A DNA stretch of 64,000 bases from Octopus vulgaris (lineage: Eukaryota): NCBI GenBank assembly GCA_951406725.2, contig OX597838.1:26474001-26538000 (forward strand), written 5' to 3'. Below, piece by piece: positions 3,019-53,033 of this stretch; within the stretch, counting starts at the first letter, position 1, and the number at the start of each line of letters is the position of its first letter. The notes below the pieces were generated by a model that was not told the origin of the DNA, searched no databases, and saw nothing but the letters and a program-made list of their open reading frames with translations. Position numbers and translations under genes: made by a program.

Positions 3019-3083
3019 CGCGAGTATTTCTCATAACACTGCTTGACAATCAATGTTAGTTTTCTAAAGTCCCCGTAACCTAT

Positions 3084-3450
3084 TTCTTTACTACCCACGA
3101 GGGGCTAAACACAGAGAGGACAAACAAACGGATTAAGTCGATTACATCGACCCCAGTGCGTAACTGGTACTTAATTTATCGACCCCGAAAGGATGAAAGG
3201 AAAAGTCGACCTCGGCGGAATTTGAACTCACAACAACGGCAGACGAAATACCAATTTCTTTATTACCCACTAGGGGCTAAACAAGGACAGACATAGGTAT
3301 TAAGTCGATTACATCGACCCCAGTGCGTAACTGGTACTTAATTTGTCGACCCCGAAAGGATGAAAGGCAAAGTCGACCTCGGCGGAATTTGAACTCACAA
3401 CGTGACGGCAGACGAAATACCGCTGAGCATTTCGCCAGCTTGCCTCGTAG
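3084..3450 (-). mobile_element. Dimeric SINE (family B, Deu/Nin-like core) nested in a family A SINE
   Basis: Two body units with the core gcctttcatcctttcggggtcgataaa; 15-bp target-site duplication gtccccgtaacctat at 3069-3083 and 3451-3465. Confidence 0.85.
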
Positions 3451-3804
3451 GTCCCCGTAACCTATCATTTTGGCAACAGAGGCCAACAGAATAAAGTATC
3501 GCTTAAAAATTAAGCGCTGGGGTTGATTTGTTACACTCAACAACTTCGAAGCAGTGTCCCTACCATCGCCATAATCTAATGATAGAAACAAATAAAGATA
3601 TAATATGACAGAATATACAACTAAGCCTCTCAGCTGGCTCGAAATAGCAGTCAAATCATCCTCAAATTACAATGCCTTAAAAAAGAACGGAAAAGTGGGA
3701 GACAGAAACGAAATAGCTGTGGTTATAACGCATTCGGTGACATGAGGATGACCTAGGGCTAAAAAAAAAAAAACATAAACAATTATTACTACACGCTTAA
3801 CGTT

Positions 3805-3880
3805 CTAATCACGTGAGTATCTAATCCGACGTTTTGATTGGCTGGTTTTTCTGATTGGTTCGATTTAAACGAAGCGCGGC
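3805..3880 (+). promoter_or_regulatory. Candidate cell-cycle (G2/M) promoter of the kinesin-6 gene
   Basis: E-box TCACGTGA 3809-3816, inverted CCAAT boxes ATTGG 3837-3841 and 3854-3858, CHR variant TTTAAA 3864-3869 with GC element gcgcgg 3874-3879 four nt away; CpG-containing, repeat-free patch upstream of a strong donor. Confidence 0.6.
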
Positions 3881-3889
3881 TAAACTTTT

Positions 3890-4062
3890 ATTTGGATTTC
3901 TGTTTATTTTTCCTTGTTAAAAAAAAAAGATATTCGCTAACAAAGTTGTTTGTTTTTTTACATTAATTCACTATTTTTCACTCGTTTTGTTTTTTTTTGT
4001 CTACAAAACTCATCAATTCGTGATATTTCTTCATCAAACTGACACGTTAAACTATTAATTAG
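3890..4062 (+). other. KIF20A/B: Putative non-coding first exon (5' UTR); start approximate
   Basis: Strong donor AG|GTGAGT at 4062/4063 just downstream of the promoter motifs; alternative donor AT|GTAAGT at 4152/4153; first coding exon has an acceptor at 9117 just before the ATG. Confidence 0.5.
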
Positions 4063-4888
4063 GTGAGTAACTTCGGAAGTTTTCCTTCATATTAATTCCA
4101 TTGACACAAGTTTTAACGTCTAAACCAATTATATACACAAGCATCTCGAAATGTAAGTAGCCTCTGGCTTTTTTGAAAGAATTATTTCTAGAAATAAATG
4201 TCATTTAATGCATTTGAATACTTAATCTAGTATTTAGTAGACATTCCTTGTGCTATTTTCAATGGCTTGACCCGTTTCATACCAGTTATTTAAGTAAATT
4301 TAGTTTGAAAAAGTTAACGGCTATCTCTTAACGTGAATGTAGTGCAAATGATTATATTTTCGGGGTATTCAAAGCACTTTCTTTTAAAACCTTAATTTAA
4401 GTATAGGCCCACTAGGTTCGATATTGTATATCCAAATATACAGGGCTGAAATGTATTATCCTATATAATGTATATTGCTAGTATTTTTTTTTTGATTACT
4501 AATTATTATGGTTTTTATTATCAGTTCTTACTTTGGTAGCACTTGAGTTGTTCGCATATATTCTACCCTTGCTTAGCGGTATTTCGTCTGTCGTTACGTT
4601 CTGAGTTCAAATTCCGCCGAGATCAACTTTGCCTTTCGTCCTTTCGGGGTCGATAAATAAAGTACCAGTTTCGCACTGGGGGGCGATATAATCGACTCAA
4701 TCCCTTCGTCTGTCCTTGTTTGTCCCCTCTATGTTTAGCCCCTTGTGGGCAGTAAAGAAATATATATTCTACCCTCTCACGAAATACTTAATTTATATAT
4801 ATATATATTCATATACGTATATATATTTGGGTAAATTTACCTATATGTAATGCGAGCATGTTCTTAGTTATAAAAGATTGTGCGTGCG

Positions 4889-4920
<32 letters not shown>

Positions 4921-5514
4921 ACGGAGCAAGTGATTTGATCTGAGATCGTGTTCTGAAACGAAAACAATTGCAGCGTGGAAGGGTGTTTGTAAGCCATTTA
5001 AGAAACACACAAAAGCCATTCGATTCACTTCAACATTTAAGTTTAATTTGTCAAAATATTTTCGTCGCTTTAAGGACCGCGACCTGTTCACTGACAAAAA
5101 TCCGTGCTGCATCTAAGCAGTATACATACATCTCCCACTGTATATCAACACTGATAAATCTTGGTAGTGTTTATATAAAACTGAAATTTACATTTCATGT
5201 GAAAATGGCGCAATTCATAGAACAAGATGAAGCACCTCCCTTCACTCGTCTTTTAGTTCCACTCACGCTAGTGCCAGTCCACATGCCATTTGTATTTTTC
5301 GTTATAGCTGATGTGTCAGCATTTAAATGAATGACTGTATTACAATGGCAAATAACTTACAAATATTGTAACGGCGTGAAACCATTTATGTTTAAAAAAA
5401 ATTAGATGTGATGAAATGTAGCTAAGTGGAATGAAATTTGAAATTTACTGTTTTTTTAAAATGAAAAGACGGTTTGACATGTTAACAAAAGAAAGGAAAT
5501 ATAAATAGGATATC

Positions 5515-5710
5515 TCTTTACTCTTTTACTGGTTTCAGTCATTTGACTGCGGCCATGCTGAAGCACCGCCTTTAATCGAGCAACTCGACCCTGGGACTTA
5601 TTCTTTTGTAAGCCCAGTACTTATGCTATCGGTCTCCTTTTGCCGAACCGCTAAGTAACGGGGGACATAAACACACCAGCATCGGTTGTCAAGCAATGCT
5701 AGGGGGACAA

Positions 5711-5759
<49 letters not shown>

Positions 5760-5944
5760 TATATATATATACATATATACGACGGGCTTCTTTTCAGTTT
5801 CCGTCTACTAAATCCACTCACAAGGCATTGGTCGGTCGAGGCCATAGTAGAAGACACTTGCCCAAGGTGCCACGCAGTGGGACTGAACCCGGAACTATGT
5901 GATTGGTAAACAAGCTACTTGCCACACAGCCACTCCTGCGCCTA
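5515..5944 (-). mobile_element. tRNA-derived SINE family A, full length
   Basis: Head ggcgcaggagtggctgtgtgg...gggttcagtccc (A/B-box-like), ccttgggcaagtgtc, internal (TA)/(CA) tract, tail gactgaaac(a)agtaaaagagta; more than 15 related copies in the window. Confidence 0.85.
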
Positions 5945-6014
5945 TCTCTATTTTTTTTTAATGAGAAATTGTTTTGTTTTTTCACGTGACATTGCAGCAA
6001 TTAGTTAAGCGACT

Positions 6015-6165
6015 GGATCGTTTCCTTTTGAACGGCAGCATTTTCTCAAGAAAGCCAAGAGAAAAAATTGTTTTATTTTGACACATTCTACCAGTATACG
6101 AAGTTTAAAGGTGTTTAGTTAACTAGAAATTGTGTTGAAAACTGCCGTTCAAAAGGAAAAGATCC
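6015..6165. mobile_element. GGATC-ended TIR MITE (Merlin/Mutator-like), short form
   Basis: Ends ggatcgtttccttttgaacggcag / ctgccgttcaaaaggaaaagatcc; 8-bp TSD aagcgact/aagcaact. Confidence 0.75.
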
Positions 6166-9313: not shown

Positions 9314-12300
9314 GTGAGATTCTGTTTAATCTGTGAGATTGAGATAAAGGCTGATGTGTGTGGGTGGTCTTTAAAGTTGGAAAACCATGTGTGTGTGTGT
9401 CTGCATAGAGGGAGGGAGGGAGAGTTTTAAAGTGATGTACAGATATTGTATATTTAGAATAATAAGGTAGCCAGGATGTTGGATGGCTATGTTTATTTAT
9501 TTACATCTTATTTACATTTTTAGCGCTTTCTTCCATTATTGGATTTTTTGACAAACCCAATAACGGAAGAAAGTGCTAAAAATTTAATTAAATAAAAAGA
9601 AATATATAATCAACCAACATTCTGATTACCTTATTCTAAATACACACACAAATGTAGGTTTGTGATCCAGAGTTTTTTTTTTAAATTAAGAGATTTGTTC
9701 ACCCAACGATTGATGTTTGCTAAGCTCTGATGCTTTTGGCTAGGCTTGGCAGCGTGGTAAGAGACTTACTCTCTTTCTCTCTTTTATTTGTTTGTCATTT
9801 GACTGCGGCCATGCTGGAGCACTGCCTTTAATCGAGCAACTCGACCCCAGGACTTATTCTTTGTAAGCCCAGTACTTATTCTATCGGTCTCTTTTGCCGA
9901 AACGCTAAGTGACGGGGTCATAAACACACCAGCATAGGTTGTCAAGCAATGCTAGGGGGACAAACACAGACACACACATACATATATACGACGGGCTTCT
10001 TTCAGTTTCCGTCTATCAAATCCACTCACAAGGCTTTGGTCGGCCCGAGGCTATAGTAGACACTTGCCCAAGGTACCACGCAGTGGGACTAAACCTGGAA
10101 CCATGTAGTTGGTAAGCAAGCTACTTACCACACAGCCACTCCACCTATGACTTGCTTCCAGGCTCACATGGGTTTTGATTCAGTTCCACTGTGGCAAGTG
10201 TCCACTATAGCCCTGGGCTGACCAAAGCCTTGTGAGTCTATTTGGTAGATGCAAACTGAAAGAAACCTATCATATTCATCATCATCATTTTGGGTTTGTT
10301 TTCCATGCTGGCATGGGTTGAATGGCCTGACAAGAGCTGGCAAGTTAAAAGACTGCACTAAGTCCTGATGCCTGGTTTGGCTTGGTTTCTATTGCTGGAT
10401 GCCCTTTCTAATACCTATTTCTTTACTACCCACAAGGGGCTAAACACAGAGGGGACAAACAGATTAAGTTGATTATATCGACCCCAGTGCGTAACTGGTA
10501 CTTAATTTATCGACCCTGAAAGGATGAAAGGCAAAGTCGACCTCTTGGCTTGGTTTCTACTGCTGGATGCCCTTTCTGATACCAACTGCTTTGCATACAT
10601 GTGTGTGTGTGTTGCATGATGTCTAGTCACGAGGGGGAAAATATTCCCTTGTTTTGAAGTGAGGGTTATTGATAGGAAGGGCAGTCGGTCATAGAAAATC
10701 AGCCTCAACAAAACACCTTCTGACCCATGCAAGCACGGGAAAGTGGATGTTAAACTGTTGATGATGATGCCTTCTTTTCATTAAACTTTTTCTTACATCT
10801 TCTAGAGCTGTCTGACAATCTGTGGCAAGACGGTCACAGCTTGGGCCCCAAAGGATTCCAACACGTACAAAAGCAACACTTACACTACCAACAAGAACGT
10901 TCAGACATTCAAGTTCTCAAGAATTTTCGATGAACAGACATCACAGAGCGACTTTTACAGCGAAACCTGTCAGGGACTCGTGAAGAACTTCCTCAATGGA
11001 CAGAACTGCCTCATGTTTGCTTATGGAGTAACCAACTCGGGCAAGACATACACAATACAAGGTATTCAATCTTTTATCTTTTACTTGTTTCACTTATAAT
11101 GCTGTGGCCATGCTGGGACACCACCTTAAATCTGTTAGTTGAATGAATGGCCCTGGTACTTTTTTTAAGCTTGGTACTATGTTGGTCTCTTTTGCCAGAC
11201 AGGGCAACTTTCAGTTTCTGTCTACCTTAATCCACTCACAAGGCTCTGGTTGGCCCAAGGTGCCACAGAGAGGGGCTTAACCTGTAGCCGTGTTGGCAAG
11301 CAAGCTTCTTATTTCTTTATTGCCCACAAGGGGCTAAACATAGAGGGGACAAACAAGGACAGACAAAGGGATTGTCGATTGCATCAACTCCCAGTGCGTA
11401 ACTGGTACTTAATTTATCAACCCTGAAAGGCAAAGTCGACCTCGGCGGAATTTGAACTCGGAACATAGACAAAAAACTGCTAAGCATTTCGCCTGGCGTG
11501 CTAACGTTTCTGCCAACTCGTCACCTTATGTGGTAAGAAGCTTGCTGTGCCTATGAAATATGTAATAATTTATTACGCATATCATATATACACATTACAT
11601 AGAATATACAATACATGAAAAAAGGGTAAAAATTCCCTTTGGTCTTGAATGACCCAAGAGACTGCACATTAGAAAGTTTCCCTCCCAGGCTCAAGTCTGG
11701 ACAAGGTTGTTTATGGAAGACCAGTAGTTGCCCATGCATGCCAGCCTCTCCTCTCCAAGTCACCAATGTTATCTCAGGGAAAGACAAAGGCCGATACATC
11801 TTGGCACCAGTGACATCGCAACTCATTTCTACAGCTGATTAAACTGGAGCAATGTGAAAATAAAGTGTCTTGCTCAAGAACGCAACACACTGCCTGGTCT
11901 GGGAATCGAACTCACTGCCTCATGTTTGTGAGCCAAACACTCGAACTGCTTAGCCATATAATGCAAAAGCATCCTGTGGTCTGCAATAGTCAGTAAAATG
12001 GAAATAAAAATTTTTTTTATTTCTTCTCTCTGTGTGGTATAATACTAGATGATTCATGGTCAGGCACTGGTCTATGGCCCAGTGGTTGGGGATCTCCACT
12101 CTTTAGCCAAAACTTGAAAGCAACATTCAGTTAAAGGCCAGCAATTTTGGGGGTGGGGTGGGGGATAAGTCAATTATATCAACCCCAGTGTTTCATTGTT
12201 ACTCATTTTATTAATTCCGATAGGATGAAAGGCAAAGTCAACCTCACCGGAATTTGAACTCAGAACGTAAAAGACACATAGAATGCCCACTAAGCACTTT

Positions 12301-15300
12301 GTCTCTTGTGCTGATAATTGTTATTTCTTTACTGCCCACAAGGGGCTACATGCAGAGGGGACAAACAATGACCCCCAGTACTCAACTGGTACTTATTTCA
12401 TCGACTCCGAAAGGATGAAAGGCAAAGTCGACCTCTGTGGAATTTGAACTCCGAACATAACTGCAGATGAAATACTGTTAAGCATTTTGCCTGGCGTGCT
12501 AATGGTTCTGCCAGCTCGCCACTTTATGTGTGCTGAGGATTCTGCCAGCTTCTTGCTCTTAACTGAATATTAAATGGTTTAATATTTTGGAAGTGTTTGA
12601 AAATAATCGTTTTCTTATTTTTTTGTACTAATTTATTATCATTTCATTCGGTCCACTCAGCTGGCAAAAATGAGTAGTACCAGTAATTCAAAGGGCCAGC
12701 CTTGTGTCACACTGAATCTCCCTGAGAACTACATTAAGGATTATTTATATAGGACAGATAAGTATTGTCACCTTATTGTTACTACAACATTTCAGCTGGT
12801 GTACTCTACAGCCTTCATCAGGTGTCTTGGTGGAATTTTGAATCCAACCCTTTATTTGACTAATGGGGTACTCTGTAGAGCAGTATTACATTAAGGATAA
12901 ACGTACATGTCTGTGGAGTACTCAACCACTTGCACGTTAATTTCACAAGCAGGCGGTTCCGTTGATCGGATCAACTGAAGCCCTTGTCAGCATAACCAGC
13001 AGAGTGCCGGCTGTTGTTATACCATTTTGTCATTTATTCTCTCAGCGAAAAAATCATATTCTTTGTTTGCTGTTTCAGGTACACCGAAAGAACCAGGTAT
13101 ATTACCTCGTACGCTTGAGACAATATTCAGCCACATCTCCGGTAAACTGTGGCACGGTCTCGACCTAAAACCAAAAATGTATTTAGACGTCATAAAACTA
13201 TCGCCCACCTTTGAAGCTGACGAAAAACAAAGGAAAGAAGAGCTTTTGCGGTTAGCTTCTTTTGATGTGAGTTGTTTACTGTATTACTTTCTGAATTTTC
13301 CATCTTTCATCGTTTAACCCTTTTGTTACTAACCCGGCCGAAACCGGCTCTGGCTCTGTGGTAAAATGTTTTGTTCTCAAAAGTTTTGAATTAAAATATT
13401 CCACCAAACCTTAGTCACAATTTATGTTCCTAACACTAGCCTAATGATAACTAAGTTATTTTACTAAATTCTTTGTTACATGTAAAATAATTGAAAGAAA
13501 CACAGAGCATCTCAAAATACAGTAACGAAAGGGTTAATTTAAAATATCTTGGTGTGGTCAGTAAGTGAAATATGTATTTTATCCCGTTTTCATCTAACTG
13601 CAGTTCTTTTGTACCATGCTGGGATATAAAGGCACTTGAAATGAGAGGTGTCAAATATCTTGACTTTGTAGTAATATTACTACTAATGCAGTAATATTTA
13701 ATCCATTTGTTCACATGAATCTTACATATACAGTAAGGTCTCGAAATATGAGTTAATTTGTTCCCGAGACTGCTCATAACGCAAAAACTTGTCAAGCAGA
13801 GCAATAATTTCCCATAATAGCAATGTTATAAATTGCATCTTGTTCTCAGAAAAATATTTTACCTATAAAATTTACAATACTCGTAAATAAATGGCAATAA
13901 AACAACAGTGGAATGTAAAGAATATTCTATGTAAAGTAAAAATGTGAAGATCATATATAATAAAAATCACTTTCACTCACACTAGACATGCACTCATCAC
14001 TTGTAGACGCGAATGCCAATTCACAAGCACTTGTAGACACACCTGTAGATTCCTTTTTAAAAAACAAGTTTAGAGTTTGCTTTTTTATTTTTTTCCCCCC
14101 TACTCTCAGAACCTGTATTGTTACATGTTGCAACGTTGCCACATGCACAAAATTTCGTTTTGGGATTTGGTTTGCAAGATTCTTTATGTCAGTTCGTGTG
14201 TTGAAGCATATTCTGTTGTGTCTGGGGAGAGTCATTTTCTTTTTGTGCCTTATAATATAACTCACTCACCGGTAAAATTTCCACTTTTTTTCTTATTTTT
14301 ATTTCCATTGCGTCTTGCAGCCTTTTCAATAGTCTTGACTCTCTAAAAATAAAATTTGTAAAGCCAGTACTTGAAAAGTGAGGTATTACTGTATTTTACA
14401 ACCTGTATTCATCTCCATTTGGTCCGTTGCCAGCCACGCCTGGCCCCCGTGCCGGTGACACGTAAAAGCACCATCCGTTCGTAGCCGTTTGCCAGCCTTG
14501 CCTGGCCCCCGTGCCGGTGACACGTAAAAGCACCATCCGTTCGTGTCCGTTGCCAGCATCGCCTGGCCCCGTGCCAGTGACACGTAAAAGCACCATCTGT
14601 TCGTGGCCGTTTGCCAGCTCTGTCTGGCACCTGTGCAGGTGGCACGTAAAAAGCACCCACTACACTCACGGAGTGGTTGGCGTTAGGAAGGGCATCCAGC
14701 CGTAGAAACATTGCCAGATCTGACTGGGCCTGGTGAAGCCTTCCAGCTTCACAGACCCCCAGTTGAACCGTCCAACCCATGCTAGCATGGAAAGCGGACG
14801 CTAAATGATGATGATGATGATTTCTTTTGTACCTTGCCAGGATATAAAGACACTTTCAAGTGAAAAGTGTCAAATACCTTGACAAAACCATATGTTAATG
14901 CAGTGGTATGCTTAAATCATTTATATGAGTATAACATATATTTCTATTTGTACATTACATATATTTATACATACATTTTTTTATATTACAGGAATCTGAT
15001 AACCAGAGCACTTTTGCAGACAGTGGTCGTGAGTCATGTACCTTAGATGCCCAAGAGACCACCCACGGTGAGGATGTGGCAACAGCCAAAGAGAGGGTGG
15101 TGGTGGTGGGGGGCATGCATTCTCATTATGAAAAGTAAATGGAGGGGTGTCTGTTGTTGTAGAACTATCGGGCGGATTACTAAGCCAGGGAGCTAAAACC
15201 TCTTCACATCTTCGACTGAGGACATGGCCTCTCATTACTCATTTACTTGTTTCAGTCATTTGACTGTGGCCATGCTGGGGCACCGCCTTTAGTCGAGGAA

Positions 15301-19086: not shown

Positions 19087-22000
19087 CATCATCATCATCA
19101 TCATATATATATCTGATGGGCTTCTTTCAGTTTCCTTCTACCAAATCCACTCATGAGGTTTTGGTTGGCCTGAGGCTATAGAAGTCTCCTGTCCAAGTTG
19201 CCACACAGTGGGACTGAACCCAGAACCATGTGGTTGGGGAGGAAGCTTCTTACCACATAGTTGCACTTGAGTGTGTTTGTATATATTCAAACATAGACAA
19301 CAGGCTTCTTTCAGTTTTCCATGTACCAGTTGTACTCAGGTCTTTTGCTGGCCTGAAGCTATAGTAAGAAACACTTGTCCAAGGTGCTACACACTGGGAC
19401 TGAACCCAAAACCATGTGGTTGGGAAGCAAACTGCTAAACCACACAGACTTCATATGAAAAATGCATTTAGATCTACTTGGCACTTTGTGGCATTCTGCC
19501 CACACGGGAGGAACCCAAGAAGAGGTTCTGGGACCATCTTAAGCTTGCCCTCAACTCCTGCAACGTTCAACTGGCACAACATGAATACTTTGCTCAGAAC
19601 TGGTAAACCTGGCGCTCCTTCTGCGACGAAAGAGCTGCACGCTTTGAACTAATCCGACATGAGAAATTTCAGGAAAAGAGACATGAACATCATCTCAGAC
19701 ACACCATCAGCATAATGGGCAACTTCTCTTGTCGTCTGTGTTCAGGGACATGCCATTCCAGGATCGGACTGTTTTCACATCTATCAACTCCCAAAATGTT
19801 GGGTGAGACTCCTAGAGTACAACATTGACAGACAGCTATAAGCAGTAAGGTAAAGGCTCTCAAAGAGAGGGTCAAATATGGCTCCTAGTTTGAGATTTTC
19901 TTCGTAATTATAAGGTTGTCCCAAAAGTTCGTAGAAAGTCTTGGAAAATAATGGTCTTTATTTTTAGGAATAATTTTTGTTGTTTTTGTTAGTACTTGGC
20001 GAGTAAAAATTCAATTTTCGCAAGTGTTTATGAACTTTTGGGACAACCTAATATAAGTTGTCACAATACGAGATTTTTTTTTTTGTCACATTATATGTAT
20101 GTCATGTGTCATAATATTAGGTTGTTATGATATTAAACTTGCTTCTTCTCATTCTTGTTGCAGCCATTGTATATTTAATATCAAACTTGTACAAGTTGTT
20201 AACAGAAAGAACCCAAGTGTGGCTAAAGTGAGCATGTAAGTACTCCTCGACGTTTGTTACAAATATTCCCCTCTCTTTGTGTCTGTATGTGTTGTTATTT
20301 GTTCCTTCTCGAGTGATGCCTAGCTCATAAGGGCTGGTTTCCTGGTTTCATTGGCCTATAGGTTCCTCAGCTGGTGGGCTGCTAGATGCAGGAGGAAAGA
20401 GTGAGAGAAAGTTGTAGCGAAAGAGTCAGTAGAAATTTGCCATTACCTTCTGCCGGAGCCACATGGATCTTCTGTATTTTGATCATAAACACACACATTG
20501 CCCAGTCTGAGATTTGAACCTGCGATCCTGCACCGCAAGTCTGTTGCTCTAACCACTAGGCCATGTCCCTCCACTGTGTCTCTATGTACATTATTATTAT
20601 TGCGTGAGCGAGTTGTTAAAGCATTAGATAAAACCTTGTGTCATTTCTAGTTACTTCCTGTTTGCATTGTACTCAAATTTCACTGAGTTTAAGTTTTGCT
20701 TTTAATTTTTTTGGGGTTGATGAAATAAAGGACCAGTTGAGCACCAGGGTTGATGAAATAAGCTAGTCCCTCTCCCCAAAAATTTCAGGTCTTCTACCAT
20801 TGAAACCATTATTATTATTAAGGCAGTGAGCTGGCAGAATTTTTGGCACGCTGGGCAAAATGCTTCACGGCATTTTGTCTGTCCTTACACCCCAAGTTCA
20901 AATTCCGCTGAGGTCGATTTAACCTTTCATCTTTTCAGGGCTGATAAATTAAGTACCATTGGAGTACTGAGGTTAATGTAATCAACTTTCCCTCTCCACT
21001 CAAATTCCAGGCCTTACTGCCCCCGAGTAAATTCTTCATTATTTTCAAAATTTAATTAAATTAAAGGCAGTGCATTTCCATTAGAAATATGGTAGCAAAA
21101 AGGTTAAAGTAGGAGTTCAAGCAGGTGCATGTATGATAGTGCTGTTAGATAGAACCCTTTACAATGATGTGATTTGTAGCTTCACTGCTGTTTCTAGCAC
21201 TTCATTTGGTTGTTAGAGGGAGGGCAGGCTTTGCTTTTTGGTTTAAGGCGTTGAACTAGCAGAATTATTGGCACATCAGACAAAAATACTTGGTGGCATT
21301 TTATCCATCTTTCAAATTCTTCCGATGTCGACTTTGCCTTTCATCCTTTCAGGGTTCATAAATTAAGTACCAGTTGTACACTTGGGTTGATGTAATCGAC
21401 TTAACCCTTTAGCATTCAGATTACTCTGTCAAATGTAAAGCCTGTTTAATTACGTTGTTTTAAATTAATTGTACAGCATATTGTAACTCTGAGATTTTGA
21501 TGATGTCCCTGTTTATTTTTAGAATGACTTTGTAGGGTAGGTGTGAGAGGTCAGAGCTGGCTGGTTTGAGCATATAACAAGACAATTTTGGCCTGATATG
21601 GCCGGTTTAAACTCTAAAGGGTTAAACTCTTTTCCTGAAATTGCTGGCCTTGCGCCAAAATTTGAATCTAATGGTTATTTGTTTTTGTATTTTTCTTTCT
21701 AGGTTGTCTCTCTGTGACTTGGCAGGTAGTGAGCGTACGTGTAAGACCAATTCCACAGGAGATCGTCTGAAAGAGGCTGGCAACATCAACACTTCACTGC
21801 TGACACTTGGCCGGTGCATTGAGACGATGAGAAGTAATCAGTTAAGAAAGTGAGTTTACTGATGTGGTTTCATTGAGGCAGGTTTTATACGGTTGGATGA
21901 TGCCTTTCCTGTCCCCAACCCTCATTTGCTGCCAAACAAGATAAAGTTTCCCCATAACTTGACATTTGAAGGAAAATAGTGTTGAAAAATATAAATCCGA

Positions 22001-22252: not shown

Positions 22253-25200
22253 CATACATATATATACGACGGGCAGAAAACACTTGCCCAAGGTACCACG
22301 CAGTGGGACTAAACCCGGAACCATGTGGTTGGTAGACAAGCTACTTACCACACAGCCACTCCTGTGCCTACGACCTGATCGACTTAGGATCTGTCAGTCA
22401 GAACAGAACTCATAAGTGGAGGAGGTGTATTTTATGCTCTTTCAAAGGTCTGTGCAATGGCTGTTGTCAACCGACTGAACGGCTGTGTGTTATTTAATGG
22501 ATCTTTATCGGCTTCTATGATGAGTGTTTAGTCGTTTGATCAACTGAACTCCTTGCCTTGAATTAGCATGTAATTGGCTGAGTACTCTACAGTAATTTTC
22601 ATGTACAATTGCCATGATATAAAGGTTTGTGTGTGGGGGGCAGGCTTAGATGTGAACTGTATGGAAGTTTATCCATCTGACAAGCTTCCTTATAGTTTCC
22701 ATCTTAATTTCACTCACATGGCTTGAGTCAACCTGAAGCTATGATAGATCCCTTTTGACCAAAATGTGCAGTGGGATCGACCCGAGACCATGTGAATGTG
22801 AAGCACACCTTAGCCATTTGGCCATGCTTATTGTACCTTGATGGTATTTAGTTTTGGCCCCATTGCTGTCTGTGACCCTCATCATTATTTAATGTCCCAT
22901 GCTGGCATGGGTTGGTTGGATCAACAGTGAGCTCCAGTGTCTGTTTTGGCAAGGATTCTACAGTGGAGGCCCCTCCTAACACCAACCAATTTACAGAGTG
23001 GACTTGTACTGTTTCTTTGTTTTTTCATGGCATCGGAACTGTGTGACTTTGATGACCCCTATTACTGATGAAGAGTAGAAAAGAGAAGGAATGCGATAAT
23101 TCTGGCTGGAGTGATGAGGGACAGTATTTTGGATCTTTACCTTTTGACCTACAGTTTACTGATGTGGTTTCATTGAGGCAGGTTTTATACGGTTGGATGC
23201 CTTTCCTGTCCCCAACCCTCATTTGCTGCCAAACAAGATAAAGTTTCCCCATAACTTGAAGGAAAATAGTGTTGAAAAATATAAATCCGACATACTCTGT
23301 TACTTGTTTCAGTCATTTTACTGCAGCCATGCTGGAGCACCGCCTTCAATCGAGCAACTCGACCCCGGGACTTATTCTTTTGTAAGCCCAGTACTGATTC
23401 TATTGGTCTCTTTTGCCGAACCGCTTTTTTTGTAACTAAACACCAGACACTGGTAGAATGTGTCATATAAAACATCTTTTACTCTTAGCTTTGATTGGTT
23501 GAAAGTACCGAAATACGAGAACTTTAACGTGAAATAACTTCGTAAATATAAGCTTTTCTCAAAAACACTAAAAGTAAAAGATATTTTATATGACACATTC
23601 TACCAGTGTCCGAAGTTTGAAAGTGTTTCGTTACAAAAAATTATTTTTTAAATCTGTGGGTCAAAAGATAATAAAGATCCATCATTTTCTGATGTCGGTC
23701 GTGAAAATACCTTGCTTTATTTCATATCTCTTTGTTTTTTCCCCGTTTCTTATTTCTAGGGAGTTTCCAAAGTTGATTCCTTACCGAGACAGCAAGTTGA
23801 CCCGTCTTTTCCAGGGTTTCTTCAATGGTCATGGTGAGGCCATAATGATTGTCAACGTGAACAAATGCAGCACTTTGTTTGATGAAACTCTGCAGGTGTT
23901 CAAGTTTTCGGCAATTGCCAAGCAGGTAGTCATTCAAAAGGACCCACTGAAGTCACCGTCTGTCAACATCTCACCCGTGCTCCCTGTCAAGCCTCTCTCA
24001 AACCTTGAAAGGGATTCTATACCCTGGGCTACAGATGGTAAACAATTTTAATCACATTCACGTGTACACTTTTTAATTATAGCATGGAAGGCAGATGTTA
24101 AACAGTTAAATGATATATATATATATATAAATTAAGTACCAGTTACGCACTGGGGTTGATGTAATCGACTTAATCCCTTTGTCTGTCCTTGTTTAGCCTC
24201 TTGTGGGCAATAAAGAAATAAGAAATCTATGGATGATTTAGCAGGTTGCTAATGTCTATGCAAATGATTAAATTAGTCAGCTGTTGATGACTGAGGTAGT
24301 TAGAACACCTACAGTGCGAGAGATGAGAGCTAAAGCACTCTGATGCTGCACACACATGGTGGGTTTCTCTCAGTTTCCATCAACCAAATCTCCTCAGAAG
24401 GCCTTGATCAACCTGAAGCTGTTCTTTTTTTCCTTTTACTTGTTTCAGTCATTTGACTGCGGCCATGCTGGAGCACCACCTTTTAGTCCAGCAAATCGAC
24501 CCCAGGACTTATTCTTTGTAAGCCTAGTACTTATTCTATCGGTCCCTTTTGCTGAACTGCTAAGTGACGGGGTTGTAAACACACCAGCATCGGTTGTCAA
24601 GCGATGTTGGGGGGGACAAACATATACACACATACATACATATATATATATACATATATACGACGGGCTTTCAGTTTCCGTCTACCAAATCCACTCAAGG
24701 CTTTGGTTGGCCCGAGGCTATAGTAGAAGACACTTGCCCAAGGTGCCACGCAGTGGGACTGTTCTTGGAACCATGTGGTTGGTAAGCAAGCTACTTACCA
24801 CACAGCCACTCCTACGCCTATAGTAAAAATAAAAAATTAAAAAAACTGGCCCAAAGTGCTACACAGTAGGACTGAACCCGAAACCATGTGGTTGGGAGGC
24901 AAACTTTTAACCACACAACCAGCCAGCACCTTTGTCCATATTCATTCAATCTCACTGGAAAATTAGGTCCCATAACATTTCCTCTGTAGCTTGCAACAAA
25001 TTAATCTGAGTTTCACTGTTTCTTTGAAAATTCCTCAGTTAACCATTTCGCTATTAAGCTGAGAGGTTTGGCCTTAGTTGGATGCTAAATAAATGAAGGA
25101 TTTTACAGAGATAACATTTTATCCATGTAGTGGGGTTGACATGATGTTTTCTTGTTTTTTTTGTATATATATTTTCCCTCTCATCCAAACTGACTTCATT

Positions 25201-28226: not shown

Positions 28227-31200
28227 CATACACACGACAGGCTTCTTTCAGTTTCAATTTTCCAAATCCACTCACAAGGCTTTGGTCAGCCCGAGGCTAT
28301 TGTAGAAGACACTTGCCCAAGGTGCCACGCAGTGGGACTGAACCCGGAACCATGTGGTTGGTAAACCAGCTACTTACCGCACAGCCACTCCTGCGCCTGT
28401 CAGGATCATTTGATGGGTTTTTTTTTGTTGTTTTTTTTCCACCCTTTTCATGTCAACTTGCCTGAACCCATACTTGGCCCTGTCATACAAACACCCTGCT
28501 TAAAAGTGATCTTAATTAAAACCTATCAAAGTTTCATAGTAATTTTTTTTTAGGCATGGCTGTGTGGTAAGAAGGTGGTGAGCTAGCAGAAACATTAGCA
28601 CGCTGGGTGAAATGCTCAGCGGTATTTCATCTGTCTTTATGTTCTGAGTTCAAATTAATCCGTTTGTCTGTCCTTGTTTGTCCTCTCTGTGTTTAGCCCC
28701 TTGTGGGTAGTAAAGAAATAGGTATTTCATCTGTCTTTACGTTCTGAGTTCAAATTGTGCCGAGGTCGACTTTGCCTTTCATCCTTTCGGGGTCGATTAA
28801 ATAAGTACCAGTTATGCACTGGGGTCGATATAATTGACTTAATCCGTTTGTCTGTCCATGTTAATTTATAATCAGAGTACCAGCTTGAAGACACTAATTA
28901 AAATTCATGTTAATTTATAATCAGAGTACCAGCTTGAAGACACTAATTAAAATTCCATGTTAATTTATAATCAGAGTACCAGCTTGAAGACACTAATTAA
29001 AATTCCATGTTAATTTATAATCAGAGTACAAGCTTGAAGACACTGATTATAAATTAACATGGAATTTTAATTAGAGTACCAGCTTGAAGACAGTTAATTT
29101 ATTAACCTTATTTTCAAGTATAATTGAAGTGTATATCAACAGGAATATGATACTGAAAGGTTTAAATAAATGCAGGCATAATTAATTGATATTCATCTCT
29201 GTTTTCATTTGGTAACAGTGAAAAGCTCCGTGCAAGTCAGCTGGAAGCAGAAGAAAGGTCGAATCGGTGTGTATTGAAGATGCTGAACACCGTAAGCTCC
29301 AAGAAGCGTTCTCATGATGAGGTGGAGAGTGAAGAGAAAGTTGTACCTTTGCATGTATTTGAAGAACTGCAGGAGAAGAAACAGGTAGGCTGGATAATGG
29401 CTTCTTTGGATCTGAAATGTGTTTGTGTTGGTGGTATTTGTATCTCTTCAAAGGCGGCGAGCTGGCAGAATCGTTAGCATGCCGGGCGAAATGCTAAGCG
29501 GTATTTCGTCTGCCGTTACGTTGTGAGTTCAAATTCCGCCGAGGTCGACTTTGCCTTTCATCCTTTCGGGGTCGATAAATTAAGTACCAGTTGCGCACTG
29601 GGGTCGATGTAATCGACTTAATACCTATATCTGTCCTTGTTTGTCCCCTCTCTTTCTAGCCCCTTGTGGGTAATAAAGAAATAGGTATTTGTATCTCTTC
29701 ATGAGGCGGCAATCTGGCAGAAACGTTAGTATGCCGGGTGAAATGCATAGCTGTATTTCGTCTGCTGTTACATTCTGAGTTCAAATTCCTCCAAGGTCGA
29801 TAAATTAAGTACCAGTTGCGCACTGGGGTCAATATAATCGACTCGATCCGTTTGTTTGTCCCTCTGTGTTTAGCCCCTTGTGGGTAGTAAAGAAATAGGT
29901 ATATCGTCTGCCACTACGTTCTGAGTTCAAATTCCACCGAGGTCAAGTTTGCCTTTCATCCTTTCGGGGTCGATAAATTAAGTACCAGTTGCGCACTAGG
30001 GTCAATATAATCGACTTCATCCGTTTGTCCTTGTTTGTCCCCTCTGTGTTTAGCCCTTTGTGGGTAGTAAAGAAATAGGTATTTCGTCTGCCACTGCGTT
30101 CTGAGTTCAAACTCCACCGAGGTCGACTTTGCCTTTCATCCTTTCGGAGTCGATAAATTAAGTACCAGTTATGCACTGGGATCGATATAATTGACTTAAT
30201 CCGTTTGTCTGTCCTTGTTTGTCCCCTCTGTGTTTAGCCCCTTGTGGGTAGTAAAGAAATAGGTATTTGTATTTCTTCATCTCTCGGGGTTGTTGGTGTT
30301 TAGTAGTGCTTGTATGTCATATGGCATTGTTTGATTGTGTTGCTGGATGCCAACCACTACAAGGGTGTAGTAGGTACTTTTTACGTGCCACCACCATCGG
30401 CCATGATTACAATCTCACTTGGCTTCTCAGGTCTTCACAAGCACGGTATATCAACAACTGAGACCTTTGGCAAAACTACCATGCTTGTGAAAACCTGTCA
30501 GGCCAAGTGAGGTCGTGGCCGATGCCAGTGTCTCATCAATGGCACCCATCCTGGGGGTACATAATAAGCACCCACTGCACTCTTGGAGTGGTTGACATTA
30601 GGAAGGGCATCCAGGCATAGAAACCAAGCCAAATCAGATGGGGACCTGTTTGCAGCTCCCCGGCTTACCAGTTTTCAGTCAAACTGTCCAACCCATGCCA
30701 GCATGGAAAAAGCAGATGTTAAATGATGATGATGATGCTGTTATTTGATAGTATGTGTGGTTGTCTCTTGATGTATGTGTATACATGTAATGCACACCTG
30801 TAGTTGGCACTTAGGTGATAGTGTTGTTATGTATGTGTGTGCGTATCAGAGAGAGAGGCAAGCAATCATGTCATTTGAAATTATTAAAAAACTAATTGTA
30901 TTTAAATTATATTCTCTCTTTTCCTTCTGTCAGGAATGTGAATTGAAAATCGAAAAACTAAACCAACAGCTCGAATCGACAAAAGCTCAGCTGCGAAGGC
31001 TGACATTGGATCGTTCTGCATTGCAATCAGAGAAGACCTCCTTACAACTGCAATTAGAGGTTCCTGGTCTCTACAAGAATCCGGTAAGTCTCTTGGCTAT
31101 GAAATGAAATGAAATGCCTCATTATCCTTAACCCTTTTGATACCAACCCGGCCAAAACCGGCTCTGGCTCTGTAGTACAAATGTCTTACTTTCATAAGTA

Positions 31201-40059: not shown

Positions 40060-40097
<38 letters not shown>

Positions 40098-46000: not shown

Positions 46001-49000
46001 TGTTGGTGCATTTACACCCCCATAACTTAGTGGTTTGGCAAAAATGAGATTGATAAAATAAGTACCAGGCTTAAAATTAAGTTGCAGGGGTCAATTTATT
46101 CAACTAAAAATTCCTCAAGGCAGTGCCCCAGCATGGCCACAGTCTATTGACTGAAACAAGTAGAAAAAAAAAGAAGGATAAAATTTATTGCCTTTCTAAT
46201 TTTCTTCATTCCTATATTAATTTTATCTCCCATTTCTTTCCAGAAGGCACCCAACCTGTGGAGAATGTTGCAGAATTTGAGCTGCGAGAACGTGCTTTAA
46301 TTCATGGTTACAATGCCGAGATAGCAAAGTACAAGCTATTGGTTCGGAAACTTCGTCAAGAACTTGGCTTTCGCAACACCAGTCACCTCTCGCCAAATAA
46401 AAGCTTACGTCCCGAACTCAGCAGTTGTCTAGAACATAATGAACTGAAGCAGTATTTACTGCGTCAGGTAAAGAAACTTCAAGACGAACTGGACAAAAAC
46501 TCTCAGTGTGTGTCTGAGTTGCTTCATGAACTCGAAGTTAAGAAGGCTGCAGAGACGGATTTAGAAGAGAGGTTAGAGAAGGAAGCGAAGGGACACCAGC
46601 AGGCCAAAGCTGCTGTGTCTGAGATGAGAGAGAAGCTGAAGAAAGTGAATGAAAGATGTCGTTCGTCGTCCTTCGAGGCAGAAAAAACTTATTTAACAAT
46701 CAACAGTGAGATGTTTGACAGTGGAGATTGTGTTCTGTCTTGCAAAGAGAACAAAGATGAGGAATTTGCTTTGGGTGTTAAGAAATCTGATGAAAACCAG
46801 TCTGAGCATAGTGATGGGAACAAGGAGGCAAGGGATAAAATTGTCAAGACGAAGAAAGAGGGTCCTCTTTTGAGTATCGAGAATCAAAATGACACGAAAC
46901 TGTCTGTGTTTGATAATCACAACTTGAAGGATAAAATAATTAATAAGAATAAGGAAATCTTGAAATTACAAGAGACACTGCTTTCATATTCAGAACTGGA
47001 CTCCAAATATCAAAAGAAAATTAAAGAAAATGAGGAACTTTTATGCGAAGTTCAAAAGCATGGAACTCTTGAACGTGATCTTAAAAAGAAAGTGAAAAAT
47101 TTAGAAGCAAAAGTAGAAAAGATTGTGGTGTTTGAAGTTGAAATAGAGAGCCAAGTTGCCATCATTAAACACCTTCAATCAGCGGTGGATGAGAAATCTA
47201 AATTATTGTCTGATCTTCAGAGTCAGAATGGTGGAGAAAGTCCCATGTTGAAACGGAAGATGGAAGAGATGCAAACTGTGATGGAAGGTTTGCGTGAAAT
47301 GGTCGACGACAGCACAAAAGAACTGGCCAAAAATAATGAGAAAATCGGTGATTTAGAAAACAAAGAAAAGATGGTGTCTTCTCTTCAGACAGAATTGGAA
47401 ACCTTGAAATCTTGTCAGAGTAGTTTGAAGTCTGAGGCTAAGATTAAGTCTGATTCTCTTCAGAGTAAACTTGATGAGTTGCAATCTGAGAAAGACAAGG
47501 TCTGCAAAGAAAAAAATTGTTTAGAGAATGAAGTGATTCAGCTGAAAGAGCTTGTTGAGAAGAAAACAGAAGAAATGTCTAGTTTGAGAACAGAGCTGAA
47601 AGCCAAAGACATTGAGAGTGAGAAAGAAAATGTATTGGTTATCAATAACTTGAAGAATACATTACACAATGCAGTAAGTGAACGGGAAGGTGTGGTGCAG
47701 GAATTGGCAGAAGCTAAAGAGAAACTGTTGGGAAAAGATGAAGAAATCTGCCAAATGTCCAAAAAGATTGAGGAATATGAGAAAAAATTAGAAGACTCAA
47801 AGACTGAATTGGAAGCTGTTCAGGAAAAGAAAAGTATTGAAAGTGATGCTCTGAATGATATAATTAACGAGATGAACAACAAAATAGCTAGCATGAACCT
47901 ACTGAAGGAAAAACTTCAGAAAGAAATAGTGAATGTTGCGGAACATTTGAAATCTTTGAAAACGGAACTGGCTACAGTTCGTCAACTGAAATTAGACATG
48001 GATGACAATGTGAAGAGCTATATGGCAGATCTGAAGTCTAACCTGAGTGAAATTACTGGTCTTACTGCAGCTGCCGCTCACTGTGATAAGTCGATGTTGA
48101 CCGATTTGGAGATGCTGCCTGAAAAGAAGGAAATTGAATCTCTGAATTTGAAGATAGTTGACTTGGAGAAAGATCTGGAAGACAATGTTCATGTGAGAGA
48201 AAATTTTATGATTGAAATTTCCTGTCTTGTGGCATCATTGAAAAATAAAGACCAACAAATAGAAAATTTAACCAAAGACAAAATCCAGGCATCTGAGGAA
48301 GAATCTTCAGAGAATAAAGTAAATCTTCTTGAAAGTGACGTTGGATCTGAACACACGAGGAATCGATTGTCCAGTGAGAAATCCGATGATCTGAGTTCAT
48401 CATCATCATCATCATCATCAGGTGAGAAACAGCACCATCAGGTGTCACCACCAAAGCAGGACAACCAGTCACCGCCACCAAAGAAACCAGCCCGTCAGTC
48501 GGCACCAACGAAGCCAAGAAGACAGTCATTATGTAAGAAACAAGATGGAGACACACAGACTTCTCCTGAGAAGCAGGACAGGGTTAAACAGACAACTCCT
48601 GAGATGCAAGTCGGATCCACGCAGACGTCTCCTGAGAAGCAGGAGAGACTTTCAAATGTGGTATGTAGAAAAATTTGCTGAGTTAGTAGTCTTAACCCTT
48701 TAGCGTTCAAATTAATATGTCATAAATGTGGAGGCGCAATGGCCCAGTGGTTAGGGCAGCGGACTCGCGGTTTCGATTCCCAGACTGGGCGTTGTGAGTG
48801 TTTATTGAGCGGAAACACCTAAAAGCTCCACGAGGCTCCGGCAGTGGATGGTGGTAATCCCTGCTGTACTCTTTCACCACAACTTTCTCTCACTCTTACT
48901 TCCTGTTTCTGTTGTACCTGTATTTCAAGGGGCCGGCCTTGTCACTCTCTGTGTCACGCTGAATATCCCTGAGAACTACGTTAAGGGTGCACGTGTCTGT

Positions 49001-52000
49001 GGAGTGCTCAGCCACTTACACGTTAATTTCACGAGCAGGCTGTTCCGTTGATTCGGATCAACCGGAACCCTCATCGTCGTAACCGACGGAGTGCTTCATA
49101 TGTCATAAGTAATCCTTTTGCATTTACATATTTAAAGATTAATCTGGTATTATCTTGTAGCTTCAAGATTTGAAAGATGTAATTGTTTATTTTTAGAATG
49201 ACATTGCAGGGTCGGTGTGAGATACTGGTTCTGGCCAGTTTGAGCATAAAATGAGTAGAATATTCAGGCCAGATATAGCCAGTTTAAACACTAAAGGGTT
49301 AAAGAAATTCCTCAGTTCATCTGTATTGTTACTGCGTTCTTTTATTATTATAGTCAAGGGTTCAATCCTATTGTGTAGCACTCTGGAGTCTTTTGCTCTA
49401 GCCCCAGGGGTTGACCAAAGCCTTGTGAGTGGGTTTGGTTGAAAGAATCCCATCACACACAAGCATGTACATGTGTACAGTTGCTCAACCTGCTACAAAT
49501 AGCAGCCAAATTGTTCTATCTTATAAAAAGATACCTTTAAAAATGTCATTTTGGATATCCGTCCGTCCGTCCGTCTGTCCGTCCGTCCGTCCATCCGTCC
49601 ATCCTCTATCCATCTATCTATCTTGCTAGCTAGCTAGCTATGCACCTGTCTGTCTGTAGCAAAGATGCTGCGTGTGAGTGACGAAACCACTTTGAGCATG
49701 ATCCTGTAAATCAAAAAAAGAGAGAGATAGCACTTTGCTCTCATGTGTTTATTCCCTCCCTGCCTAAGGTTACCATGGTCTTTCCCGTAGGCTTTTCTTT
49801 CCACGGATAAACCTAATCTTACTTTTTACATTTTTAGAACTCTTCAATATATATAGATGACCAATAGAATAAGTATTAGGCTTACAAAGAATAAGTCTTG
49901 GGGTTGATTTGTTCGACTAAATGCGGTGCTCCAGCATGGCTGCAGTCACATGATTGAAACTAATAAAAGAATAAAAGCAGGCGTGGCTGTGTGGTAAGTA
50001 GCTTGCTTCCCAACCACATGGTTCCGGGTTCAGTCCTACTTTGTGGCACCTTGGGCAGGTATCTTCTACTATAGCCTTGGGCCGACCAAAGCCTTGTGAG
50101 TGGATTTGGTAGATGGAAACTGAAAGAAGCCCATCGTATATATGTGTGTGTTCGTGTGTGTGTGTTGGTCCCCACCACCATCACTTGACAAGCAATGCTG
50201 GTGTGTTTATGTCCTAGGGTCAATTTGTTCGACTAAAGGTGATGCTCCAGCATGGCCACAGTCAAATGACTGAAACAAGTAAAAGAATAGCAATATATAG
50301 AATAAATGAAAAATATATTGGCTTTTCTCATGTTCCTTTATATTTTATTTTTTATTTTATTTTATTTTTATTTTTATTTACATTTTTTGTTCTTTATCAA
50401 AAAGACAAAGAAAGCAAAACAAGAAGAAAATGAAGAAACTATGCAGATGGATGAAACCAATTCAGAGAACTTTGGTGACAAGCATCATGTGAACTTGATG
50501 AAACAAGAGCTGGGATCGATGGCGTCAAAACTGGAGTCTTTGCAGAAGTTCTACGACGACGAGAAATCCTTAAACGATGAAGTCAAGTCTGAACTGAATG
50601 ATGTCAAGGTGAAGCTGTCCGAAGTGAAAGCTTCATACGAGGCTGAGAAATCTGTGACTCACCGGCTTCGTTATGATCTAAATGATGTGAGGAGCAGCTT
50701 GAACGAGGTGCTTGAATCATACGAGCAGTTGAACCTATCCCGGAGCGTAGTGCTTGGCGATGATCAACCTGAGGTTAATGAACAGACAATAAAGTCGTTA
50801 CTTAACGAGCTTACCCTTCCACAGCAGGACATCATCAACAGTAAGTATGTTGTTTGTGTTTTTTTTTTCTGTCATCAAGTGTGGCTGTGTGATAAGAAGG
50901 CGGCGAGCTGGCAGAAACATTAGCATGCCAGGCGAAATGCTTAGCGGTATTTCATCTGCCGTTACGTTCTGAGTTCAAATTCCCCTGAAGTTGACTTTGC
51001 CTTTCATCCTTTCGGGGTCGATAAATTAAGTACCAGTTATGCACTGGGGTCGATCTCATCGACTTAATCCCTTTGTCTGTCCTTGTTTGTCCCCTCTGTA
51101 TTTGGCCCGTTGTGGGTAGTAAAGAAATAGGTATTTCATCTGCCGTTACATTCTGAGTTCAAATTCTGCCGAAGTCGACTTTGCCTTTCATCCTTTCGGG
51201 GTCGATAAATTAAGTACCAGTTATACACTGGGGTTGATGTCATCGACTTAATCCCTTTGTCTGTCCTTGTTTGTCCCCTCTGTGTTTGGCCCGTTGTGGG
51301 TAGTAAAGAAATAGGTATTTCATCTGCCGTTACGTTCTGAGTTCAAATTCCCCTGAAGTTGACTTTGCCTTTCATCCTTTCGGGGTCGATAAATTAAGTA
51401 CCAGTTATGCACTGGGGTCGATCTCATCGACTTAATCCCTTTGTCTGTCCTTGTTTGTCCCCTCTGTGTTTGGCCCCTTGTGGGTAGTAAAGAAATAGGT
51501 ATTTCATCTGCCGTTACGTTCTGAGTTCAAATTCTGCCGAAGTCAGCTTTGCCTTTCATCCTTTCGGGGTCAATAAATTAAGTACCAGTTATGCACTGGG
51601 GTCGATGTCATCGACTTAATCCCTTTGTCTGTCCTTGTTTGTCCCCTCTGTGTTTGGCCCCTTGTGGGTAGTAAAGAAATAGGTATTTCATCTGCCATTA
51701 CGTTCTGAGTTCAAATTCCGCCGAAGTCGACTTTGCCTTTCATCCTTTCGGGGTCAATAAATTAAGTACCAGTTATGCACTGGGGTCGATCTCATCGACT
51801 TAATCCCTTTGTCTGTCCTTGTTTGTCCCCTCTGTGTTTGGCCCGTTGTGGGTAGTAAAGAAATAGGTATTTCATCTGCCGTTACGTTCTGAGTTCAAAT
51901 TCCCCTGAAGTTGACTTTGCCTTTCATCCTTTCGGGGTCGATAAATTAAGTACCAGTTATGCACTGGGGTCGATCTCATCGACTTAATCCCTTTGTCTGT

Positions 52001-53033
52001 CCTTGTTTGTCCCCTCTGTGTTTGGCCCCTTGTGGGTAGTAAAGAAATAGGTATTTCATCTGCCGTTACGTTCTGAGTTCAAATTCCCCTGAAGTTGACT
52101 TTGCCTTTCATCCTTTCGGGGTCGATAAATTAAGTACCAGTTATGCACTGGGGTCGATCTCATCGACTTAATCCCTTTGTCTGTCCTTGTTTGTCCCCTC
52201 TATGTTTAGCACCTTGTGGGCAATAAAGAAATAAGAGTGCATGGGTGCTTTATACGTGCCACCAGCACATGTGTGTTTACGCATCACTGACACGAGTGCA
52301 TTTCATGTGGCACTGACACCTGTGAAGGACAAGTCTGCATGGATGGATGATCACAATTTGTCTTACTTCAAATTTCATATGTCAGAGTAACCTCAATTCA
52401 TAATGGCAACCAGTATATGTCATCTAATTTTCAGCCAAGCCCATTTCTTATCTAAACAACAATAGCAACTTCTCTTTCACAAACAAGTTTAATAGAAGAT
52501 AAGAGAAGGGATAGGAAGAACTAGATAAATAGATAAAACGAATGAATGAATTAATGTTAAATCAGATACCAGGTATTTTTATAATCTATATTTCTCTAAT
52601 TCAATAATGTGAGAGTGTGGCTATATATATATATATATATATACTTTTTTACTCGTTTCAGTCATTTGACTGTGGCCATGCTGGAGCACCACCTTTAATC
52701 GAGCAACTCGACCCCAGGACTTATTCTTTGTAAGCCTAGTACTTATTCTATCGGTCTCTTTTGCCGAACCGCTAAGTGACGGGGACGTAAACACACAAGC
52801 ATCGGTTGTCAAGCAATGCTAGGGGGACAAACACAGACACACAAACATACACGCACACACATATACATATATACGACGGGCTTCTTTCAGTTTCCGTCTA
52901 CCAAATCCACTCACAAGGCTTTGGTTGGCCCGAGGCTATAGTAGAAGACACTTGCCCAAGGTGCCACGCAGTGGGACTGAACCCGGAACCATGTGGTTGG
53001 TAAACAAGCTACTTACCACAGAGCCACTCCTGC

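Follow-up and report, generated by a model that had tools for sequence, protein, structure and literature searches.

A subtype-linked tail extension that matches the head of the same element suggests self-targeted priming in a tandemly arrayed SINE of Octopus vulgaris

Introduction

In squamates, short interspersed elements (SINEs) have given rise to satellites (sSat), and thousands of loci have one and the same unit (Vassetzky et al. 2023, PMC10702118). The accessible text of that paper describes tandem units shorter than the SINE, alternating locus-specific variants and arrays of few to many units; the snake sSat3 unit begins in the head and has the B box, not the A box. Here we examined a 64,000-nucleotide stretch of Octopus vulgaris DNA (contig OX597838.1, positions 26,474,001 to 26,538,000; hereafter the window), in which a SINE with a tRNA-like head, family B, forms arrays that resemble sSat in these respects. 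The start of sSat arrays is ascribed to unequal recombination or same-locus insertion, and the phrase "target site duplication" occurs 0 times in the same accessible text (PMC10702118), whereas units of family B are bounded by the insertion motif of the element, and this boundary goes with the tail subtype.

Tail-directed priming is also known from other elements. In CR1, L2 and RTE, the 3' end of the element overlaps the start of the target-site duplication (TSD) and tail repeats shift the TSD pattern, and elephant SINEs differing only in their tail repeat have different TSD patterns, according to the available portion of PMC6007223. The overlap there consists of one to several bases of simple repeat, whereas in family B it consists of 5-7 bases equal to the element's own head site; TSDs reach 36-39 bp in family B, compared with 7-15 bp for RTE (PMC6007223). 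SART1Bm initiates better with a target-like 3' extension and R1Bm requires one, and RNA carrying downstream target sequence starts reverse transcription more accurately (PMC7265360, as far as its text was available). These are autonomous, site-specific long interspersed elements (LINEs) with ribosomal DNA or telomere-repeat targets in the host, whereas family B is a non-autonomous SINE that appears to target itself. Like family B, animal retrozymes of the non-LTR (long terminal repeat) type form dispersed arrays, from dimers to multimers, of a small unit and have TSDs, but their definition in the accessible text of PMC7229834 rests on a type I hammerhead and on circular RNA; family B arrays carry a tRNA-like head, and no type I hammerhead was detected in them.

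Thus, going by the accessible parts of these papers, SINE arrays whose unit starts between the A and B boxes (in snakes) and tail-directed priming are already known. What would be new, judged from the sequence, is that a tail extension coincides with a site in the head of the same element and goes with the tail subtype. The literature consulted contained no description of such an extension; subscription papers, Repbase and Dfam were outside its scope, and the two databases may describe a dimeric consensus.

Results

Family B arrays are joined in one register

Family B is a 233-bp element consisting of a tRNA-like head, a central block and a tail ending in AAAGAAATA. The head has A- and B-box-like motifs with a D-arm-like and a long arm structure; neither ARAGORN nor Rfam matched a tRNA in family B. 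Its central block, presumably akin to the 66-bp Meta domain of MetaSINEs, is common to a sibling family whose tail differs. Octopus tRNA-derived SINEs named OK, OR1 and OR2 were reportedly described by Ohshima and Okada in 1994. A tRNA-like head and a conserved central block common to a sibling family with another tail recall MetaSINEs and octopus SINEs as treated in the available part of PMC4824008. Multimers or self-targeting are not mentioned in the accessible text of PMC4824008, PMC4758252, PMC8967140 and PMC13282606 (including the supplement of the last).

The head or core of family B was present at 28 loci in the window, and 470,279 contig pieces were found in one public sequencing run (X4). 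With TSDs of 14-39 bp, family B is therefore a short interspersed high-copy repeat. Its tail and core patterns had no match in metagenome, viral or prokaryote contigs. We distinguished three tail subtypes: ATACC/GGGTAA (also written ATACCTAT/GGGTAA), ATCCGT/GGGTAG and ATCCCT/GGGC.

An earlier, sequence-only reading had placed four family B arrays in the window, each with a head and two, three or seven body units. All four were recovered at these places. The unit counts held for the dimer at 3.1 kb, the trimer and the seven-unit array (period 184, 7.0 copies by Tandem Repeats Finder), whereas the array at 28572 does not contain two full units but a 64-nt tail and a partial unit. The arrays and their immediate surroundings are as follows.

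3081..3448, minus strand: dimer; shortened head, ATACCTAT/GGGTAA-tail unit and ATCCGT/GGGTAG-tail unit, joined at 3253/3252
3069..3083, minus strand: tail-side TSD copy of the dimer, 15 bp; partner at 3451-3465; overlaps the tail by ATA
28572..28862, plus strand: likely an older copy at a family-A head site that has itself received an insertion; a 50-bp tandem repeat truncates its 3' end
28657..28720, plus strand: 64-nt GGGT-type tail between 36-bp repeats at 28621-28656 and 28721-28756
29433..29450, plus strand: host target GGTATTTG..., occurring three times (29433, 29684, 30262)
29451..29683, plus strand: full-length monomer of the ATACCTAT/GGGTAA subtype beside the trimer, with a 12-bp head arm; A-box-like motif near 29463, GGTATT at 29500, B-box-like motif at 29525
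29703..30261, plus strand: trimer; joins at 29897/29898 and 30077/30078
50897..52233, plus strand: seven-unit array in an intron; head and 7 x 184 bp; 5' end at a family-A head site

The tail-to-head join had been called nearly invariant, and all 10 internal joins indeed fell in one register. Eight of the 10 were letter-perfect, with AAAGAAATA running directly into GGTATTTC; the deviants were a tail ...AAATT at 3253 and GGTATATC at 29897. Only four joins are independent, because six fall in the seven-unit array and two in the trimer. As in SINE-derived satellites, the unit is a portion of the SINE (184 bp of 233 bp). The at least four middle monomers of such satellites were present in one of the four arrays (50897, five middle units), the other three being shorter.

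Target choice follows the tail subtype

TSDs measured 15 bp (3069), 39 bp (10377/10545), 18 and 19 bp (29433/29684/30262) and 14 bp (4570); a clean TSD was absent at 5 of 11 aligned ends. The host target at 29433 was used twice, by different subtypes, giving the 18- and 19-bp duplications. The monomers compared with the arrays are listed below.

10416..10544, minus strand: GGGT-tail monomer, 5'-truncated, inside another repeat family; 39-bp TSD at 10377-10415 and 10545-10583
53870..54089, plus strand: GGGT-tail monomer, the exception without a following GGT; head reads CCGTATT
11310..11527, minus strand: GGGC-tail monomer (control subtype) inside a family-A head at TAAGAAG
4570..4762, plus strand: GGGC-tail monomer (control subtype); 14-bp TSD, no GGT after the tail
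12322..12520, minus strand: GGGC-tail monomer (control subtype) inside a sibling-family head; no GGT after the tail
24127..24220, plus strand: GGGC-tail monomer (control subtype), 5'-truncated; second AGAAAT repeat after the tail, no GGT

The claim that host targets mimic the junction was upheld for GGGT-tail sites, though not for the SINE as a whole. At 3 of 4 distinct GGGT-tail host sites, the upstream TSD copy matched the junction sequence over 5-7 nt (P about 2e-8, given that 194 of 115,090 background positions, or 0.0017, match over at least 5 nt). The match in the TSD copy at 3069 spans 6 nt. As the upstream copy carries the match, it cannot have been templated there by RNA. Among the 20 tail ends in the window, GGT followed 14 of 15 GGGT tails (10 joins, 4 host ends) and none of the five GGGC tails, which were followed by AGA, ACA or TAT. 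The contrast persisted when only independent events were counted (8/9 against 0/5; one-sided Fisher P 0.003) and when only host sites were (3/4 against 0/5; P 0.048). The target therefore starts with the sequence just past the tail at 3 of 4 host sites and does so by subtype, as target-extension priming predicts.

The same pattern could arise if the endonuclease of the partner LINE itself preferred GGTATT and RNA-DNA pairing were uninvolved, which we consider improbable. Upstream TSD copies do carry GGTAT or ATAGGT at 3 of 4 host sites, and Dong-R4 and L1-Tx1 LINEs have site preference. Both types are listed as recently active in Octopus vulgaris in table 1 of the part of PMC13282606 that was available. 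However, GGGC tails, near-identical in the stem that a LINE presumably recognizes, use other sites (those beginning AGA, ACA or TAT) that match their own tail. In addition, the match at 3069 straddles the tail end (ATA before it, GGT after it), tracking the RNA rather than a fixed cut site.

At the 10.4-kb site, the tail-side copy reads GGTATT and the other GGTATC, a difference pointed out in the sequence-only reading. Of 19 copies of the host repeat family there (both TSD copies counted), 13 have a T at this base, so the tail-side T is no evidence of RNA templating, and we rejected an RNA-templated T as unproven. Among those host-repeat sites, this locus is the sole one reading GGTAT, and it is the one used. 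Perfect 7-mer sites numbered 18 inside family B (joins and TSDs counted) and 10 in the 57.6 kb outside it; being as common inside the family as outside, they make family B heads prime targets.

Three copies of family B occupy the same TAAGAAG site of family-A heads (11310, 28558-28572 and 50883-50897). This site matches the AGAAAT repeat of the GGGC tail, and 2 of 14 family-A heads run straight into a family B head.

Extended tails and joins occur in public sequencing runs

We aligned four public runs (X4, X5, X13 and X24) to 29400-29701; X4, X5 and X13 come from three studies under two species labels. Tail depth continued into GGTATT(T) at 0.50-0.64 in X4, 0.42-0.54 in X5 and 0.44-0.56 in X13, and fell to near zero past 29696. 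The CTGTG marker of GGGT tails accounted for 55%, 61% and 61% of depth, respectively. The share of tails extended into GGTATT, about half, was thus close to the GGGT share in all three runs. A depth step at 29499-29509, amounting to 60-80% of the depth of the extension, is a hint that joins make up the majority of extended tails; it was not used because sibling-family alignments begin nearby.

The joint from 29683 back to 29500 was present in all four runs (one read in X24; 14, 2 and 3 contigs in the others). Among the 15 of 766 joints listed, all three tail-end joints returned to 29500-29524. Of rows with intervening letters, 6 of the 12 listed (from 262) started at the tail end; five of these lay within one base of the same register, and the remaining one had a new head after GGTAT and 12 nt, resembling the double use of 29433. 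A joint from 29514 to 29451 (X4, 3 contigs) placed a new head about 15 nt behind the GGTATT of another head. X5 and X13 are putative RNA runs, and their junction contigs may derive from intronic or genomic copies and are uninformative on expression or circles.

X24, the only raw-read run, yielded one junction read and was not used for proportions. Only 15 of the 12.9 million reads of this 2026 run, which bears the same species label, aligned to a SINE of such high copy number; the run therefore differs in content or label from the other three.

The sibling family, which has the same head and core, also forms head-to-tail neighbours (20695-21030, 27205-27640, 57738-58058 and 61524-61816). Its joints in the public runs return to the first base of the head, and its head flanks are rich in ATT repeats, which suggests the same tail-matching rule with a microsatellite target.

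Arrays are mosaics

The arrays are mosaics, not copies of one template. Every unit of the seven-unit array carries four private body changes together with ATCCCT, the body marker of the GGGC subtype. Its six inner tails belong to the GGGT type and have one more change in common, and its last tail belongs to the GGGC type; units differ by 0-14 bases in a patchwork. This array sits at a TAAGAAG site, as the GGGC copy at 11310 does, and its flank lacks GGTATT. Unit 2 of the trimer has derived bases in common with unit 3 in its 5' half (columns 66-67) and with unit 1 in its 3' half (columns 144 and 158); it is a recombinant, as unequal exchange in a dimer predicts. The dimer at 3.1 kb joins two GGGT subtypes. 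A head was retained at the start of all four arrays, and none of the 10 inner tails was of the GGGC type.

These observations bear on a purely post-insertion origin, in which the body of a monomer flanked by a GGTATTT TSD is duplicated when that flank and the head site take part in slippage or unequal crossover. Exchange at the DNA level is demonstrated by the trimer and the seven-unit array, and unequal crossover, named in the sequence-only reading as the alternative, explains, as a second step, the trimer mosaic and the private changes shared in the seven-unit array, though not the founding join. As a sole mechanism it predicts one tail subtype per array; the seven-unit array and the 3.1-kb dimer have mixed tails, and the former lacks a GGTATT flank. 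Contradicted in two of four arrays, this origin is very improbable.

The array at 28572 consists of a head, 36 nt, the 64-nt tail and a partial unit cut by the 50-bp tandem. The 36-bp repeats around the tail start at the GGTATT of the head, agree at 35/36 positions and fall within the 14-39-bp range of TSDs. It is likely a truncated insertion into the head of an older copy, with a 36-bp TSD, which is the form expected of self-insertion. The 50-bp tandem (28855-29092, 4.8 copies) starts within the last unit of this array, removing its tail, and ends as an inverted copy of part of its own unit.

The join may instead be made anew during reverse transcription, if the reverse transcriptase completes a 3' fragment that starts at the top of the long arm of the head and then switches to another RNA at its tail, aided by pairing of the tail end GAAAUA with UAUUUC in the head. 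In DNA letters, GAAATA complements TATTTC 2 bases past the join, and no other 6-mer of the monomer does so (post hoc chance about 0.003). The entry point of the join is the top of the 3' strand, at the loop edge, of a 12-bp arm kept in 11 heads, with two-sided changes at 5 of 21 predicted pairs and a folding z of -2.6 for one head. A jump would also account for mixed subtypes within one array. It leaves unexplained why terminal GGGT tails choose GGTATT host sites, and why GGGC tails, which share the GAAAUA end, are missing from the inner positions. As a general source of joins it seems a poor candidate, but it may have been the route of the first join.

A CCG-head variant (53870-53930 and 29703-29760) made up 13-18% of head depth in the public-run alignment. 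Both bases of the top pair of the arm are changed to G-C, which removes GGTATT, and such heads would be immune to self-insertion.

Known ribozymes were not detected

The sequence-only reading had proposed that a multimeric or circular RNA primes by pairing its junction with the target, in the manner of retrozyme-like rolling reverse transcription. For known ribozyme classes, no Rfam match reached the gathering score in the window, and none appeared up to E 10 in two arrays. CUGANGA hammerhead cores were absent (0) from either strand of three arrays, and the 184-bp unit folded no better than shuffles (z -0.64). The sole Rfam matches in an array, all to osmY (E 0.42-0.44, far below the cut-off), and loose pistol- and hepatitis delta virus-like short motifs (0-2 per strand, no per-unit pattern) were dismissed as chance.

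Family B thus shows the dispersed short tandem arrays and the TSDs of more than 4 bp of retrozymes but, for known classes, neither a type I hammerhead nor another self-cleaving ribozyme per unit. Unit size and the spread from dimers to multimers are like those of animal non-LTR retrozymes, whose units span 150-450 bp in the accessible text of PMC7229834, and the unit ends can pair. However, a headless 184-nt circular RNA does not agree with the head in all four arrays, nor with a last unit whose subtype is unlike that of the inner ones. Of all the explanations considered, this is the one we find least credible. Of the earlier proposal, pairing with the target is supported and the circular, rolling form is not; a linear multimer could have served as template but is not required.

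Other features of the window

The window is repeat-rich animal DNA. Its plus strand encodes, among other things, two kinesin motor pieces (PF00225; 9053-61154), with SINE copies between them, followed by long coiled-coil-like open frames (46108-48681, 857 aa). We take this gene to be kinesin-6/KIF20-like. A second SINE-internal multimer, a 62-bp tandem of 3.7 copies, lies at 14422-14657 within a copy of another SINE-like family.

Discussion

Self-targeted priming combined with expansion at the DNA level is our best reading, which we favour by a little over even chances. The earlier suggestion that the SINE targets its own GGTATT drew support from the subtype-linked extension, the target match, the 36-bp duplication at 28572 and the mixed subtypes. 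A GGGT-type RNA would extend past its tail into GGUAUU(U). The extension may pair with nicked DNA by microhomology and prime LINE-driven reverse transcription, so that new copies would be directed to GGTATT in the head of the element itself. The far end of the complementary DNA (cDNA) could then pair, in register, with the target strand that was duplicated or with the upstream head. Since this duplicated strand, one unit away, has homology to the cDNA, in-register rejoining would add one 184-bp unit with an invariant join. An early stop of the cDNA would leave a short unit, as at 28572. Unequal exchange between neighbouring units would lengthen and homogenize the array; in a precursor like 28572, it could yield inner units with a GGGC body and a GGGT tail and a last GGGC tail, as in the seven-unit array.

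The consensus unit and join lack a run of four T (T4), the stop signal of RNA polymerase III, although one array has a private T4. With no internal stop in the consensus unit, arrays could be read through, and read-through would supply more RNA with a GGUAUU extension, closing a feedback loop. A monomeric master with a GGTATTT flank is an alternative source of the extension. The founding join may have been a template jump or a ligation helped by GAAATA/TATTTC pairing. We tentatively extend this to a ratchet, a less probable proposition, in which one founding join, favoured by pairing of the tail end with the head arm, re-aimed whole subfamilies at their own promoter region; arrays would be read through, breed more self-targeting RNA and account for about half of family tails genome-wide, and CCG heads would escape, their arm staying paired while GGTATT is lost.

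Several points weigh against self-targeted priming. Contig depth is a rough measure that gives no copy number, joint inspection covered 15 of the 766 joints listed, and base-by-base reading covered four arrays and four host sites. The junction sequence was not matched at 53870, the fourth GGGT-tail host site. Just one side of the head-into-head joint in X4 is represented, and the sibling family may be its source. No family B tail match was found outside SINE copies in the window, and thus no partner-LINE tail there. For the array at 28572, a dimer that has lost 84 bp by deletion is another reading; non-CpG differences (1/62 in the insert against 2/36 and 4/88 in its flanks) do not mark the insert as younger. 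In the 3.1-kb dimer, the GTTGTG variant found in unit 2 is that of the subtype of unit 1. Finally, the head of the trimer (CTGTATT, GCTGTT) differs from its unit starts (GGTAT, GCCACT), so unit 1 kept no target duplication, which requires either upstream rejoining in the head or a dimeric template.

The last point leads to the strongest competitor, in which a few linear dimeric or multimeric masters are transcribed whole and retroposed, the GGUAUU that follows any tail serves for priming and so accounts for the host targets, self-insertion is rare and unequal exchange lengthens the arrays. It is consistent with the lack of T4 in the consensus unit and join, with the mismatched trimer head, whose CCG form recurs at 53870, and with the placement of the whole 3.1-kb dimer within one TSD pair. 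On the other hand, the three tail orders (ATACC/GGGTAA then GGGTAG; GGGTAG then GGGTAG; GGGTAG then GGGC) need separate masters, each of which must itself be made, and neither the 36-bp repeat at 28572 nor the head-into-head joint in X4 fits it. We regard dimeric masters as unlikely but worth serious consideration because of the trimer head, the GTTGTG variant, the ambiguity at 28572 and the missing partner LINE.

Self-targeted priming bears on the way in which scattered SINE copies give rise to satellites that have a single fixed unit at numerous loci. It offers a mechanism in which the unit boundary would be set by retrotransposition and the array length by recombination, with the GGGC subtype serving as an internal control. 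The target of a SINE would be changed by a sequence change just past its tail, and each added unit would bring a B-box-like motif without an A box into introns.

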